Assembly: GCA_964555055.1 (NCBI GenBank)
Contig: CAZKQW010000001.1
Location: forward strand, 329,196 to 393,195
Direction: 5' to 3'
Source of the DNA: an uncultured Pseudomonadota bacterium
GTDB lineage: Bacteria; UBA10199; JACPAL01; GCA-016699445
DNA length: 64,000 nt
Below the pieces are notes generated by a model that had not been told where the DNA came from, did not search any database, and saw nothing but the letters and a program-made list of their open reading frames with translations. Positions 42,863 through 48,099 of the stretch are shown here, in pieces; positions within the stretch are counted from its first letter, which is position 1; every line of letters starts with the position of its first letter. Made by a program: the position numbers and the translations under genes.

Positions 42863-43471
42863 TTATCTTTTGCCCGGTTTTTGCGGCGGCCTTTGGGCTT
42901 GGGTGGGACGAGAAGACGCGGCCTGTTGCTGCATACGCTTACGCAAATCCATCGTCCGTTTCAGGGCAATGACGAGGGACCTCGCGCGATTCGCCCACAT
43001 GCTTTTTCCATCCGGATCGGCTAAGATCGCCAACCTAAAATCCTCCGCCGCTTTCTTGAAATTCTTATGGCGCAGGTAAATTTCCCCTCGGTTCACGTAC
43101 GGACAAAGATCCTTAGGATTGACCCGAATGGCGCGCGTGTAAGCGACAACGGCCTCTACATTCTTGCCCAACTTTTGGTAAACCCCTCCCAAAGCCATGT
43201 GGTAATAAGCATTGACGCTATCCAATTGGGATAAAGCCTTGAAAATATCATGGGCCTCTTCGTAACGCCCGTACTTGTATTTCACGTAGCCCACCTCCGC
43301 GAGCCGGGCGAAACGCTTCTTCGGCAAACCCATCAAATCGGCGGCGGAAATCTTATGGCTGACGAACTTATGGAAAAGTTCGGTTAAATAACGACGGCGC
43401 TCGGGGTTGGGGTCGAGGACTTTTCCCTTTTCCTCGTCGGCGAACGGATGGCGCGTCTCTTCTCGTGGCAT
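42863..43471 (-). CDS. TPR protein, class II T3SS chaperone-like (SycD/LcrH family)
   Basis: 'LAEVGYVKYKYGRYEEAHDIFKALSQLDSVNAYYHMALGGVYQKLGK..AVVAYTRAI' follows the SycD/LcrH three-TPR pattern. Basic tail. Confidence 0.7.
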   Translation of the reverse strand: MPREETRHPFADEEKGKVLDPNPERRRYLTELFHKFVSHKISAADLMGLPKKRFARLAEVGYVKYKYGRYEEAHDIFKALSQLDSVNAYYHMALGGVYQKLGKNVEAVVAYTRAIRVNPKDLCPYVNRGEIYLRHKNFKKAAEDFRLAILADPDGKSMWANRARSLVIALKRTMDLRKRMQQQAASSRPTQAQRPPQKPGKR

Positions 43472-43516
43472 AAGAAGAGAATCTACCGACTCTAGGGCAG
43501 ATTTTCAAAGTTATTG

Positions 43517-44374
43517 TTATTGCTTCCAGTTTTGGATGATGGTGCTCGCCGTACGCGCAATGGTTTCATCGCTCTTTTTGGTGTCGGCTGTGATGCGTTC
43601 CATATCCGAAAGACTTTTTTGGAGCATCTGGGAAATCAAACTCATGTCGCTGCTGGCCTTATTGAGGTCGCTGCTGGCCCTTAAGATCTCGGCTTGGTTC
43701 GGAGGCGTGCTCGCGTTGGCGTTACGGGTCAGATCCCGATGGATGTTATCCAAATCGGCTGAATGCTGGGCGTAGACTTCGACAATACGGCCGATTTGTC
43801 TTTGCAAACGACCCGCATTTCTCAAGCCCATAATGACGTTCACGGAAGCCGGATTCCCGCGCGCTAGAGCCAAAGCCTCGTGCCAACGACGTCTCTCTTC
43901 CGCCGATTCACGGTATTGCTGGCTGAACATCTGGTCGAGGACGTTCGGGCCATCAACACCCCTGTTACCGCCATTCACATCGGGTAAAGTCGTCTCATTC
44001 CCCGAGAGTCGATCGATTTCGTTCAGCAGAGAATCCGGATCGAAATTTTGAGACTCCAAGGTGAGCTGCGCTTGAATAGACTGGGAAGCGGATTGGATCG
44101 CCGCCATTTCGTCCCGCGTCACGTTGCTGGTCGTGCTAATGAGCCCGTCATGGAACTCGGGAATATCAGCCTCCATTGAGCGGAAGTCCGGGCGAGCCAC
44201 GATTTCCGTGAGGCGCGCTGATTGACTCGCTAAAAAGGGAATGACGTTTTGGGGTTGTAGAGCGACGTTATCGGGTATTTTTAGCTGGTCTAAGTTGACG
44301 ACAATCTGTTCTTGCGAAGAGCCTACATACGGAAGTCTTCTCTGGATTTGATTGTCGTTAACCTGAATGCCCAT
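43517..44374 (-). CDS. hypothetical 285-aa T3SS substrate candidate (C-terminal module family)
   Basis: No TM helix. The C-terminal ~110 aa is similar to the C-termini of the 535-aa and 458-aa ORFs and ends '...TASTIIQNWKQ'. Sandwiched between two SycD-like chaperones. Confidence 0.6.
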   Translation of the reverse strand: MGIQVNDNQIQRRLPYVGSSQEQIVVNLDQLKIPDNVALQPQNVIPFLASQSARLTEIVARPDFRSMEADIPEFHDGLISTTSNVTRDEMAAIQSASQSIQAQLTLESQNFDPDSLLNEIDRLSGNETTLPDVNGGNRGVDGPNVLDQMFSQQYRESAEERRRWHEALALARGNPASVNVIMGLRNAGRLQRQIGRIVEVYAQHSADLDNIHRDLTRNANASTPPNQAEILRASSDLNKASSDMSLISQMLQKSLSDMERITADTKKSDETIARTASTIIQNWKQ

Positions 44375-46720: not shown

Positions 46721-46722
46721 GG

Positions 46723-48099
46723 TTAAGCTCTCCAGCTACTGATTTGCCTCAATTGCTCGAAACCGCGGCGTATGCCTTGTTCGGTGGACGTCTGCTCTTC
46801 CAAAGCGGACATCATGTCGCGTACCGCGTTCATGGCGGTCTGACGGTCGGCCGTAATCCCTTGGATGGAGTTGTTGACGCGCATCATCTCGGCTTGGTTA
46901 TTCGTGCCGCTCGTATTCCCGGAAAGGGCCTGTAATCGGTTATTTTGTTCTTCCATCCGTTGGTTGCTGGCCTGCATGGAATTTATCATCGCCACCGCCG
47001 CATTTCGCAAACTGGACTTACTGCGTAGGGTAAGCAGCGTCACGGCTTGTAGGATCGCGTCGATATTGCCCATCATGATCATAGATTTTAAGCGGTTGAT
47101 CTCGGCGTCCAAGCGACGCGAGCGGCTTCTCTCGTCGAGGGCTTGTCCGTAGAAGGTGTTCCCAAGCCCAAGCATGTCGAAACCGCCGCCGACGCTTCCC
47201 AAGGCCGTGCCGCAAGAAGCGGCACCCAGGAAGGGGCTATATGAGGTCATGACAGGATTGAAACTCGCTCCCATGAGTCCCGGCATGCCAAAGCCTCCGC
47301 CAAAAGCGCCGAGACCGGAAGCCGAATAGGAACTCCCGAAGGGCGTGGAAAGAGCGGAGACGTTATTGTTCGCACCCAAACTCGCGATAGCCGCGGCGTT
47401 CACGAGTCCGCCGAAGGCGTTTGCGAAGGGGTTGAGAACCGAGCCTATGATCTGAGCGGCTGGATGGGGAAGCTGCTGTTGCTGGGCCTCTCTCTGGCGA
47501 GCCTCTAAAGCGTCTTGGCGTTCTTCTCTACGCCTTTCCAACGCATCGGCACGTGCTTCGTGTCTTTCTTCCCGCTCTCGATCCAAACGCGCTTGATTGT
47601 TTTGCTGAGCAATGACGGGATCAGGCCCGTTACTCGGAGGACCTCCAGCAGGCGGCTGTTGGGTCGCAGGCGGCTGTTGGGTCGCAGGCGCCGGAGCCGA
47701 AGCCGCGGGAGCCGTCGTCGAGGCGGCCGCTTCTTGTCTCGCGTCCGTCACGGAAATATTTCTTCTAACGGTACGCGTACCAGCCGCAGTATTTTCCGTC
47801 ACTTGCACACGGGCCTGCGTACCAAGGGGAAGAGGATCCCCTGTCTCACCCGCTTCAGGGCTTCGCCTTAAAGCCTCGATAATTTCCCCAATATCCGCAT
47901 CCTGGAGCCTGCCATCATGAACGATATTCACATGACGCGTGACCGTCTGTCGATTCTGGCCATTTCCCGTAGTAACCGTGACTAAAGTTTGTTGAGGAGC
48001 TAAAGGAGCCGTCGCAGTTTGCAAAAGACCAAACCGACCGTTCATTGATGTGAATGTCGACTGCTTTTCATAACCCCAGAGATTCATCGTGCCTTCCAT
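46723..48099 (-). CDS. hypothetical 458-aa T3SS substrate candidate (has both the N-terminal LWG motif and the C-terminal module)
   Basis: GGAGGAG RBS. 'MNLWGYEKQSTF..LLQTATA' N-terminus. Gly-rich hydrophobic middle ('GLGAFGGGFGMPGLMGA'). C-terminal 'INRLKSMIMMGNIDAIL...GNTSGTNNQAEMMRVNNSI'. Confidence 0.6.
   Translation of the reverse strand: MEGTMNLWGYEKQSTFTSMNGRFGLLQTATAPLAPQQTLVTVTTGNGQNRQTVTRHVNIVHDGRLQDADIGEIIEALRRSPEAGETGDPLPLGTQARVQVTENTAAGTRTVRRNISVTDARQEAAASTTAPAASAPAPATQQPPATQQPPAGGPPSNGPDPVIAQQNNQARLDREREERHEARADALERRREERQDALEARQREAQQQQLPHPAAQIIGSVLNPFANAFGGLVNAAAIASLGANNNVSALSTPFGSSYSASGLGAFGGGFGMPGLMGASFNPVMTSYSPFLGAASCGTALGSVGGGFDMLGLGNTFYGQALDERSRSRRLDAEINRLKSMIMMGNIDAILQAVTLLTLRSKSSLRNAAVAMINSMQASNQRMEEQNNRLQALSGNTSGTNNQAEMMRVNNSIQGITADRQTAMNAVRDMMSALEEQTSTEQGIRRGFEQLRQISSWRA
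47648..47683 (-). repeat. perfect 18-bp tandem duplication inside the 458-aa ORF
   Basis: gcaggcggctgttgggtc occurs twice (47648-47665 and 47666-47683). It encodes 'ATQQPP-ATQQPP' in frame. Confidence 0.9.

Follow-up and report, generated by a model that had tools for sequence, protein, structure and literature searches.

A non-flagellar type III secretion system (T3SS) is encoded on the minus strand of a 64,000-nucleotide stretch of DNA (hereafter the window) from an uncultured Pseudomonadota bacterium (GenBank assembly GCA_964555055.1, contig CAZKQW010000001.1, positions 329,196 to 393,195). By annotation of its open reading frames (ORFs), the cluster occupies positions 42863-63980 of the window, and the remainder of the window carries housekeeping genes. 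Here we describe a set of five genes at the distal end of this cluster, with the core apparatus genes lying directly upstream on the same strand. Three of the five encode proteins of 458, 535 and 285 amino acids, which we call class A, class B and class C, and the class B and class C genes are each followed directly by a gene for a tetratricopeptide repeat (TPR) protein. The three larger proteins carry a common C-terminal module. The genes and the copies of the module are as follows.

46723-48099, minus strand: ORF of the class A protein, 458 amino acids
45113-46720, minus strand: ORF of the class B protein, 535 amino acids
44382-45017, minus strand: putative TPR chaperone 1, 211 amino acids, SycD/LcrH-like, class II
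43517-44374, minus strand: ORF of the class C protein, 285 amino acids
42863-43471, minus strand: putative TPR chaperone 2, 202 amino acids, SycD/LcrH-like, class II
46726-47175, minus strand: module of the class A protein, residues 309-458, defined by its BLASTP match to the class B protein and by the envelope of the module hidden Markov model (309-458)
45116-45562, minus strand: module of the class B protein, residues 387-535, containing 'GNYEAL', the turn 'GNDTGTN' and ARLAQVNVQMNQYSSNRSAITSFLRDTMTAKEE
43520-43924, minus strand: module of the class C protein, residues ~151-285, defined by hhalign of the class A and B profile against the class C profile

One homologous module in three proteins

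The original prediction held that the three proteins share a C-terminal coiled-coil module of about 110 residues, and the peptide strings it quoted are all present in the minus-strand ORFs where it had placed them. The sharing itself is well supported, but the module is longer than had been thought, at about 140-150 residues. With compositional adjustment, BLASTP aligns the class A and class B modules at E=4e-11, with 31% identity over 153 residues. The class C protein matches neither of the other two significantly in pairwise BLASTP (best E=1.5-4.9), and profile methods were therefore needed for it. Shallow profiles already detected its module (hhalign E=2.4e-4; score 33.8, against a maximum of 18.5 for column-shuffled controls and 22 for a reversed control). 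Deep profiles were then built independently from 82 class A and B modules, with class C excluded, and from 15 class C modules; these align with 95.6% probability (E=1.1e-8, score 54) over 122 colinear columns, with scores of 14.3 for the reversed control and at most 17.9 for the column shuffles. Several landmarks run in register through all three classes, namely 'GN..A[IL]', a polar turn with 'NQA' or 'NA' at its end, '[DN]R', and 'EE.T' or 'ER.T'. The turns themselves read 'SGNTSGTNNQ', 'GNDTGTN' or 'NANASTPPNQ'.

Helical sequences invite caution, and the module might in principle be a compositional or heptad-repeat artefact that unites unrelated coiled-coil proteins. Such an artefact would sit well with the failure of pairwise BLASTP to connect the 285-residue protein to the other two, and helical repeats do inflate profile scores, as the reversed control of 22 with shallow profiles illustrates. 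However, the match between classes A and B persists despite compositional adjustment, the deep and independent profiles stand far above both of their controls, the landmarks that fall in register are not of the heptad kind, and scores against the module stay at or below 15 for other helical proteins of the T3SS in the window. We therefore give this explanation almost no credence: the BLASTP result, the deep profiles and the helical-protein controls effectively refute it.

The label of coiled coil also needs refinement, since the module is predicted to form an antiparallel helical hairpin and not a generic coiled coil. AlphaFold2 (AF2), supplied with 15 class C sequences, places helices at residues 175-220 and 227-284, between which a short turn completes a hairpin, with a predicted local distance difference test score (pLDDT) of about 75-81 in the module and low confidence in the N-terminal half. 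An AF2 run with four close orthologues gave a pLDDT of 40 and was unusable.

An undescribed family of about 100 proteins

Neither the class A, B and C proteins nor profiles built from them match anything specific in Pfam, NCBIfam or the PDB sequences. A search with the A4 profile returned only coiled-coil noise outside the module, and class C gave no match in a profile search of the PDB. In word-indexed searches of 5.8 billion clusters, each protein had 2-4 close relatives, the class A protein having just two close homologues among 5.8e9 proteins and no record on exact-match look-up. The same kind of search with the module alignment recovered two fragments only, which made an exhaustive search necessary. 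Using HMMER with the module profile against 1.84 billion representative proteins (E<=1e-3), we obtained 99 module carriers, 66 of them at E<=1e-10. These 99 proteins have no consistent Pfam family and none reaches a Pfam threshold. No described family of this kind, and nothing on the accessions of the metagenome-assembled genomes (MAGs) concerned, was found in the literature. We regard the module as an undescribed domain family with about 100 members.

For classification, 100 sequences were scored, which comprise the 99 hits, the three window proteins and two close orthologues of the 285-residue protein, less three short hits and one self-duplicate. Each was assigned to the class whose class-specific module model scored it best, so the counts for classes A and B below include divergent members without the typical N-terminus.

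Class A, 52 of 100: N-terminus M[ED][FL]WGFE..PG.GFGL in typical members (~20 of the 52), Gly-rich uncharged middle, module ending ..SRW[AGS]
Class B, 33 of 100: N-terminus M[SA]T[NQ]..P.V.V, long helical region and Ser/Thr-rich linker, module
Class C, 15 of 100: N-terminus M[GA]I[QE].R, conserved 'LKIPDxVALxPENVxPFLAxQ', divergent module ending IIQNF[KR] or IQNM[KR]

The module is C-terminal in 96 of the 99 carriers. The other three (P0063, P0064 and P0065) are large Cys-rich proteins of 739-1006 residues with Cys-containing repeats and an internal module (E ~1e-12), and two of the three have an N-terminal signal peptide. Of these we inspected the locus of P0065, which is encoded at positions 8001-11021 of L020 (GCA_053533315.1, JAIYNH010000010.1); there the neighbours are of archaeal type (TrmB, an intein-containing oxidoreductase and DCD/dUTPase) and no T3SS genes lie nearby.

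Likeness of the module to the needle subunit

As references we used the T3SS loci of Yersinia pCD1, Shigella pINV and the locus of enterocyte effacement (LEE) of enterohaemorrhagic Escherichia coli, together with six more needle genes. The combined class A and B module aligns with nine SctF needle sequences at 71% probability (hhalign E=3.7e-5, score 31.4), while shuffled controls average 9.9 with a maximum of 20.1 and the reversed control scores 11.9. The alignment runs from the last part of helix 1 through the turn and along the conserved C-terminal helix, such that the turn and second helix of the module are colinear with almost the whole needle subunit. When the module was ranked against 298 ORFs of at least 65 residues from pCD1, pINV and LEE, YscF came first, EscF third, MxiH fourth and MxiI seventh. 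Among weak Pfam matches of the 99 carriers, the needle family PF09392 is the sole T3SS-specific family that recurs (five of 99, best E=0.0078, all below the gathering score). Control alignments of inner rod, SctE, SctB and chaperone proteins against the module gave E>=0.15, and flagellar axial proteins gave no significant match, with Flagellin_N appearing in one of the 99 carriers at E=0.002.

The extreme C-terminus of class C had attracted attention earlier, in that its ending TIIQNWKQ was noted to recall the needle ending IIQNFR. This impression finds statistical support: the last ~40 residues of class C (42) align end to end with the C-terminus of SctF (E=1e-3), and they also match the C-terminus of a family of 190-residue proteins represented in the cluster (E=5e-3). 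The ending is IIQNF[KR] or IQNM[KR] in the class C orthologues P0004-6 as well as in the more divergent P0069-P0101. The likeness between module and needle is thus statistically supported, though modest, and it could stem either from a shared ancestor or from convergence under the constraints that a stacking hairpin imposes. The format of the proteins differs from that of SctF proper (YscF, MxiH, PrgI-type, EscF), which is a hairpin of ~70-90 residues (73-91 in the subunits compared) with a P-x-x-P turn and nothing else. In the trio, whose members measure 285-535 residues, a module of ~140 residues without such a turn is fused to N-terminal regions of 150-390 residues. A long antiparallel coiled coil, as in the tip and filament proteins termed SctA, is found in the AF2 model of class C.

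This cluster also carries a separate needle-like gene with a likely co-chaperone, at its far end.

62304-62876, minus strand: needle-like protein of 190 amino acids, the best needle match among the ORFs of the cluster
61891-62301, minus strand: CdsG-like TPR protein of 136 amino acids (NF052304, E=5.4e-9)

In the 190-residue protein, a long N-terminal region rich in Gly, Ser and Ala is combined with a conserved stretch of 70 C-terminal residues ending 'SIARNFRA', and an alignment of seven orthologues matches SctF in the last 34 residues only (E=1.3e-3). It is probably an atypical needle subunit. Since a CdsG/YscG-like co-chaperone gene comes next to it and no other ORF of the cluster matches needles better, a dedicated needle gene probably exists here. 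A resemblance between 'DANWEMLVAQVTV' and 'SGNWEAIKTALIL' had raised the question of whether the 190-residue protein shares the module of classes A and B; this was rejected (E=0.13-0.37).

The needle likeness can be carried further, to a model in which class B or class C is itself the major filament or needle polymer (EspA- or HrpA-like), the module polymerizes, the 190-residue protein serves as rod or adaptor, and no true pore-forming translocon exists. Resemblance to SctF across the helix-turn-helix, a class C end that looks like those of both SctF and the 190-residue protein, the confinement of the latter's own SctF match to its C-terminus behind a long Gly-rich extension, and the lack of a visible secretin in the cluster would all be expected from such a model. 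The 190-residue gene is, however, the one that is followed by the co-chaperone gene and the one that gives the best needle match; we know of no class II chaperone that serves needle or filament subunits; and class A has an uncharged region of membrane type. On balance we think it rather improbable that B or C is the main polymer.

Two distant relatives of class II chaperones

The two TPR proteins are paralogues (39% identity, E=3e-36), each with multiple Pfam TPR matches. The top NCBIfam match for both is TIGR02552 (LcrH_SycD), with E=5.8e-23 and ~81 bits for chaperone 1, covering positions 2-135 of the 136 in the profile, and E=1.7e-22 for chaperone 2. Residues 78-202 of chaperone 1 align with residues 14-140 of the PcrH chain (2xcb) at E=5.8e-6 and with IpgC at E=3e-5, while residues 43-156 of chaperone 2 align with residues 21-134 of the IpgC chain at E=2e-7 and with PcrH at E=2.3e-7. 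The matches to PcrH (2xcb) and IpgC (3gyz, 6scb) cover 98-127 of 142-155 residues, with E=2e-7 to 6e-6. An N-terminal extension of ~50-60 residues accounts for the lengths of 202 and 211 residues. The claim that the 535- and 285-residue genes are each followed by a class II-type TPR gene is supported by the gene order and by these near full-length matches, and both proteins are best viewed as putative, distant members of the SycD/LcrH class. To our knowledge, class II TPR chaperones are specific to translocators in characterized systems.

Different N-terminal regions on a common module

Upstream of the module the three classes differ. Their best conserved and most distinctive segments, and two paralogues encoded next to class A, are located as follows.

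48016-48087, minus strand: conserved N-terminal segment of class A, residues 5-28, MNLWGYEKQSTFTSMNGRFGLLQT, common to the 281- and 372-residue paralogues
47179-47463, minus strand: uncharged Gly/Ala/Ser-rich region of class A, residues 213-307, 95 residues without D, E, K, R or H
44222-44293, minus strand: most conserved N-terminal segment of class C, residues 28-51, LDQLKIPDNVALQPQNVIPFLASQ, candidate chaperone-binding region
49204-50322, minus strand: paralogue of 372 amino acids, downstream of SctT
48346-49191, minus strand: paralogue of 281 amino acids, downstream of SctT

The class A protein begins with an 'M-x-LWG[FY]E' motif, which is followed by a Pro/Ala-rich linker, a charged helix, the uncharged Gly-rich region and the module. 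It is a hybrid, in that its N-terminus ('MNLWGYEKQ...') belongs to the family of the upstream 281- and 372-residue paralogues, which combine the same motif with a short hydrophobic segment and lack the module. The 458- and 281-residue proteins match at E=0.002 over residues 5-46 (BLASTP), and the consensus of the class A N-terminal alignment is M..WGFE....P.G.FGL. This segment may be a secretion or chaperone signal. The original prediction singled out the 458-residue protein as the only one of the trio with a long hydrophobic stretch. A long stretch is indeed found in this protein alone, but it is uncharged and rich in Gly, Ala and Ser, with a 19-residue Kyte-Doolittle maximum of ~1.3. Uncharged stretches of 30-96 residues with 14-56% Gly occur in class A homologues; classes B and C have no segment of the kind expected of SctE/SctB-type transmembrane proteins. 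Class A is a candidate for the membrane-active, translocator-like member of the trio.

Class B starts with 'MGTNINIVNN' and continues with a helical region that is long and charged, then a linker rich in Ser and Thr and finally the module, without any hydrophobic segment; conserved features of its N-terminal region are M.T...P.V..V, DS[VF] and A..AE...P. Class C starts with 'MGIQV' and has a conserved segment at residues 28-51 and a divergent module. Within this segment L31, L39, P41, F47, L48, A49 and Q51 are invariant or nearly so among 15 sequences that are ~30% identical overall. Class C is a candidate tip or adaptor. Ser, Thr, Asn, Ile and Val abound in the N-termini of all three proteins, as they do in those of YopD, EspB, EspD and EspA.

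This composition bears on whether the proteins leave the cell at all. They might instead be cytoplasmic or regulatory parts of the T3SS, such as an SctW-like gatekeeper, a ruler or a sorting component, with the TPR proteins acting as assembly factors. No SctW gatekeeper gene was recognized in the part of the cluster examined, and class C, all-helical and ~290 residues long, is about the size that SctW is generally known to have. Yet none of the proteins gives an HrpJ/TyeA or SctP-type match, and SctP is already encoded at 54190-55098. The N-termini resemble those of YopD and the Esp proteins in composition, the needle-like hairpin and the uncharged region of class A argue for an extracellular role, and we consider it quite unlikely that the trio is retained in the cytoplasm.

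The genes upstream of class A form a variable set. Depending on the locus, 2 to ~7 genes separate sctT from the class A gene (window 48346-50322; L001 5579-8206; L003 2516-4705; L021 4294-9771; L022 2943-9902). Those that we read, in the window, L001, L002 and one of two in L003, start with 'M-x-LWGFE', have Pro-rich linkers and end in '...SRV'. From their sequences they look like an expanding family of substrates or effectors with a conserved N-terminal signal.

Conservation of the locus in an uncultured clade

In all seven further bacterial loci that we inspected, the class B gene is followed by a TPR gene, the class C gene, a second TPR gene and then, in convergent orientation, a gene for a sigma-54 activator with an FHA domain. 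The class A gene precedes class B wherever the contig reaches that far. The PEGA kinase gene described below is present in six of the seven, and sctR, sctS and sctT are reached upstream in four. The loci are L003, L004, L005, L007, L008/9 (groundwater), L010 (GCA_036274695.1), L021 (a 2.4-Mb contig) and L022, in each of which the FHA activator gene adjoins that of chaperone 2. The full order is sctR/S/T, variable genes of the family upstream of class A (family 1), A, B, TPR, C, TPR, FHA activator, PEGA kinase, yggT and proC. In an eighth locus, L001, the contig runs through sctRST, A and B and ends after the first TPR gene. This layout is maintained even where class C proteins are only ~30% identical, and the operon is therefore a fixed and vertically inherited component of the T3SS in this clade, not a mobile effector cassette.

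Effectors are the most probable of the alternatives. The trio could be T3SS effectors or toxins whose common hairpin oligomerizes or binds a target membrane, with the TPR proteins as their dedicated chaperones. In favour of this, the module shows no similarity to known translocators or tip proteins; surface proteins outside the T3SS, probably archaeal, carry the module as well, as would be expected of a general-purpose domain; and the variable upstream paralogues, which have the same N-terminus without the module, resemble an expanding effector family. Effector repertoires usually vary, however, whereas here one each of A, B and C is kept in fixed order, interleaved with chaperone genes beside the apparatus genes, in seven further loci down to ~30% identity. 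Moreover, Pfam and NCBIfam searches reveal no enzymatic domain, needle subunits take three of the first four places in the ranking against the module, and both TPR genes encode members of the class that, as far as is generally known, is translocator-specific in characterized systems. An effector role for the trio is thus, in our estimation, unlikely.

The locus L003 is CP064976.1, a complete MAG of 2.75 Mb that NCBI labels 'Deltaproteobacteria bacterium', and a scan of genome contigs matched it as the sole GTDB species. The only genome-level relatives bear the same NCBI label and come from wastewater, activated sludge and groundwater. The single species match and the metagenomic sources indicate an uncultured lineage. 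In four wastewater metatranscriptomes, contigs at least 99% identical to the window tile the whole operon and its neighbours (41400-51400) at low depth. Fixed single-nucleotide differences common to the runs (for example 43265 A>G and 43808 A>C) indicate that a closely related strain is present in those samples. Some orthologous loci carry insertions within the operon region that the window lacks, namely toxin-antitoxin modules (PIN, PhdYeFM, HEPN plus nucleotidyltransferase) and genes for AAA_14/DUF4143 ATPases and 2OG-Fe(II) oxygenases (L001 4779-5431 and 8233-9678; L003 1608-2260, 4896-5998 and 11620-12807; L010 3157-4136; L022 11189-12662).

The surrounding cluster and its regulation

The other genes of the cluster, and the two that converge on it, are listed below.

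60830-61894, minus strand: SctJ
59053-59889, minus strand: sigma-70-family factor with regions 2 and 4
58509-59045, minus strand: SctI-like protein (weak match)
57615-58502, minus strand: FliG_C-like protein at the SctK position
54190-57580, minus strand: SctL, SctN, SctO and SctP (SctP at 54190-55098)
53276-54184, minus strand: FliM-like SctQ (FliM domain)
52736-53242, minus strand: FliN-like protein, separate from SctQ
52435-52734, minus strand: FliO (TIGR03500, above cut-off)
50476-52448, minus strand: SctR, SctS and SctT
41455-42858, plus strand, convergent: FHA / sigma-54 enhancer-binding protein (Pfam FHA, Sigma54_activat, AAA_lid_14, HTH_8)
38826-41447, plus strand: Ser/Thr protein kinase with five PEGA domains (Pfam Pkinase, PEGA x5)

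Several parts of this T3SS have been retained in flagellar type: FliO, an SctQ with a FliM domain alongside a separate FliN-like protein, and the FliG_C-like protein. In L025, SctV lies ~9 kb upstream of the needle-like gene, and the genes between encode FHA, TPR and FHA-PEGA-TPR (661 residues) proteins. ArgJ marks the edge of the cluster. About 9 kb from the T3SS locus, at 29063-33725 on the minus strand, is a PrkA / DUF444 (YeaH-like) / SpoVR trio, a conserved stress or starvation module. The T3SS as a whole is chromosomal and vertically inherited, and flagellum-like yet non-flagellar, in an uncultured bacterial clade.

Two candidate promoters for sigma-54 precede the class A gene and the gene of the 372-residue paralogue.

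48178-48193, minus strand: candidate sigma-54 (-24/-12) promoter TGGCCCTCGTTTTGCT, 94 nucleotides upstream of the 458-residue gene
50356-50371, minus strand: sigma-54-like element, 49 nucleotides upstream of the 372-residue gene, conserved in L001, L003 and L002

The first has one mismatch to TGGCAC-N5-TTGCW, and in L001, L003 and L002 the class A gene is preceded by the conserved counterpart TGGCCC-N5-TTTGCT. Sigma-54 motifs are not enriched across the window (13 observed against 19 expected), so it is position and conservation that support these two sites. Scans of the window for sigma-70 promoters and terminators stayed at background level. Only 2 nucleotides separate the class A stop from the class B start, and 7 nucleotides separate the gene for chaperone 1 from that for class C, a tight packing that suggests co-transcription. 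The conserved elements fit control by the adjacent and conserved FHA/sigma-54 activator, which is the probable regulator of the operon. Because FHA domains bind phosphothreonine, the PEGA Ser/Thr kinase is a possible upstream input to this activator. Elsewhere in the cluster, a sigma-54-like -24/-12 motif (TGGCATGTTGACTGCA, 59916-59931, minus strand) is found 42 nucleotides upstream of the sigma-70-family factor gene, which suggests a cascade from sigma-54 to an alternative sigma factor.

Discussion

We are inclined, by a modest measure, to view the trio as a chaperoned, sigma-54-controlled set of tip, filament and translocator proteins that docks by means of a needle-like hairpin and in which class A is membrane-active. 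According to this model, three T3SS substrates would consist of distinct N-terminal regions fused to one homologous hairpin domain of ~140 residues. In the cytoplasm, the TPR chaperones would hold the substrates via their N-terminal peptides and block premature self-association, and export would take place once the needle is assembled. The needle-like hairpins would then stack the substrates on the distal end of the needle and on one another. Class C, which ends like a needle subunit, would be the tip or adaptor; class B, with its long helical region, would be the extension or filament; and class A, with its 95 uncharged Gly-rich residues, would be the member that inserts into membranes and forms the pore. 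Transcription would start from the sigma-54 promoter under the adjacent FHA enhancer-binding protein, possibly downstream of the PEGA kinase. We infer secretion, the pairing of chaperones with substrates, assembly order, pore formation and regulation from context, as we do the assignment of a tip, filament or translocator role to each protein.

A number of observations weigh against this interpretation. The module shows no significant likeness in hhalign to the proteins whose functions the trio would assume, including EspA, LcrV and YopB/D, with which comparison had been suggested at the outset. Against single sequences of tip, filament and translocator proteins, E was 0.24 for LcrV, 0.31 for EspA, 0.31 for YopB, 0.6 for YopD, 0.17 for IpaB, 0.23 for IpaC, 0.064 for EspB and 0.13 for EspD, and the module or class profiles gave E>=0.36 against SctE and SctB alignments. 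The similarity to SctF, at 71% probability and below the Pfam threshold, extends over ~50-60 of the ~140 module columns, and class C aligns to SctF in a register different from that of A and B. Foldseek comparison of the model with the PDB returned only generic antiparallel coiled-coil hairpins, none at E<=1e-3. The chaperones score 79.6 and 81.1 bits against a TIGR02552 cut-off of 104.8 bits and are therefore distant relatives, not equivalogs; generic TPR proteins match them more strongly; and an exact P/VxLxxP motif for chaperone binding was looked for without success, the candidate being the conserved class C segment. Neither a secretin (SctC) nor SctU/FlhB was seen in ~30 kb of the cluster (window 50476-64000 plus L025 1-20573), and both may be encoded elsewhere in the genome. 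The Gly-rich region of class A is moderately hydrophobic and may not be transmembrane, and the metatranscriptome contigs may represent DNA carry-over. Finally, the module is present in Cys-rich proteins, one of them at an archaeal-looking locus away from any T3SS, and the domain is therefore not strictly T3SS-specific; these copies could have arisen by horizontal transfer or point to an older origin.

The translocon interpretation of the trio nevertheless draws on five features that agree: the distal position of the genes, the fixed trio with its two interleaved class II-type chaperone genes, the lack of an enzymatic domain, the composition of the N-termini and the needle-like hairpin. The original prediction had proposed tip, filament or translocator-class axial proteins of a new type. 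Of this proposal, the T3SS context, the class of the chaperones, the novelty of the family and the likeness to the needle are supported; similarity to known tip and translocator proteins was not detected.

The arrangement of the genes has counterparts in well-known systems. LEE4, with espA-espD-espB and CesD/CesD2, likewise places three genes for tip, filament and translocator proteins together with one or more class II TPR chaperones at the edge of a T3SS cluster, and in both cases Ser, Thr, Asn and Val are plentiful in the N-termini. The sseB-sscA-sseC-sseD genes of Salmonella pathogenicity island 2 are the same kind of operon. Unlike LEE4, with which there is no detectable sequence similarity, the operon described here has one homologous C-terminal domain in all three substrates, and each chaperone paralogue follows a substrate gene. 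In lcrGVH-yopBD of Yersinia and ipgC-ipaBCD of Shigella, too, a gene of the SycD/LcrH chaperone family adjoins translocator and tip genes. Those systems have one chaperone encoded before its substrates, whereas here two paralogues with N-terminal extensions of ~50-60 residues are encoded after them.

Two class II chaperone paralogues (Scc2 and Scc3) that serve translocator sets (CopB/CopD duplicates) are familiar from the chlamydial T3SS, in which the needle subunit CdsF is accompanied by CdsE and CdsG. The 136-residue TPR protein next to the needle-like gene matches the CdsG family. Among the module carriers examined no chlamydial-type locus was encountered, chlamydial sequences not having been compared directly. 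Flagellar axial proteins (rod, hook, hook-associated proteins and flagellin) offer a conceptual parallel, since they are exported sequentially and combine variable regions with homologous terminal helical domains for assembly; in the present proteins the shared domain is C-terminal only and, as noted, matches none of them significantly. The apparatus can be compared with the early-branching 'Myxo' non-flagellar T3SS of the Myxococcales, which is reported to be without SctF, tip and translocon (Abby & Rocha 2012, PMC3459982). Flagellum-like traits (FliO, FliM-like SctQ and FliG_C-like protein here), the lack of a visible secretin and vertical chromosomal inheritance are common to both, but the present cluster differs in having candidates for needle, tip and translocon as well as class II chaperones. 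A chaperoned tip and translocon operon is a known kind of system, and what is new is the occurrence, in a flagellum-like T3SS, of three proteins at the translocon position with one needle-like domain and of two chaperone paralogues, each after a substrate.

Tip and translocator proteins are the evolutionarily least conserved and least understood parts of the T3SS. They could not be integrated into the scheme of T3SS evolution because of a lack of detectable similarity across systems (Abby & Rocha 2012, PMC3459982). It is tempting to speculate, although we hold this to be a doubtful proposition at present, that classes A, B and C arose by duplication of a needle-type hairpin and accretion of different N-terminal regions, such that the operon is a living record of the origin of tip and translocon from the needle, and that the hairpin was also taken up by Cys-rich surface proteins in an apparent archaeon. 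If this were true, the operon would belong to a flagellum-like cluster in which no secretin has been seen, and the 2012 scheme was unable to accommodate such a state.

The analysis identifies a conserved, putative circuit of kinase, FHA-sigma-54 activator and promoter at the locus. If the translocon interpretation is confirmed, the T3SS would gain a new domain family of about 100 members and a testable model of docking by needle mimicry for tip, extension and pore proteins, and the question of whether translocons go back to duplications of the needle would have a concrete case. The uncultured clade, with small genomes of 2.4-2.75 Mb, probably relies on this machine for its lifestyle, be that predatory, symbiotic or of another kind.

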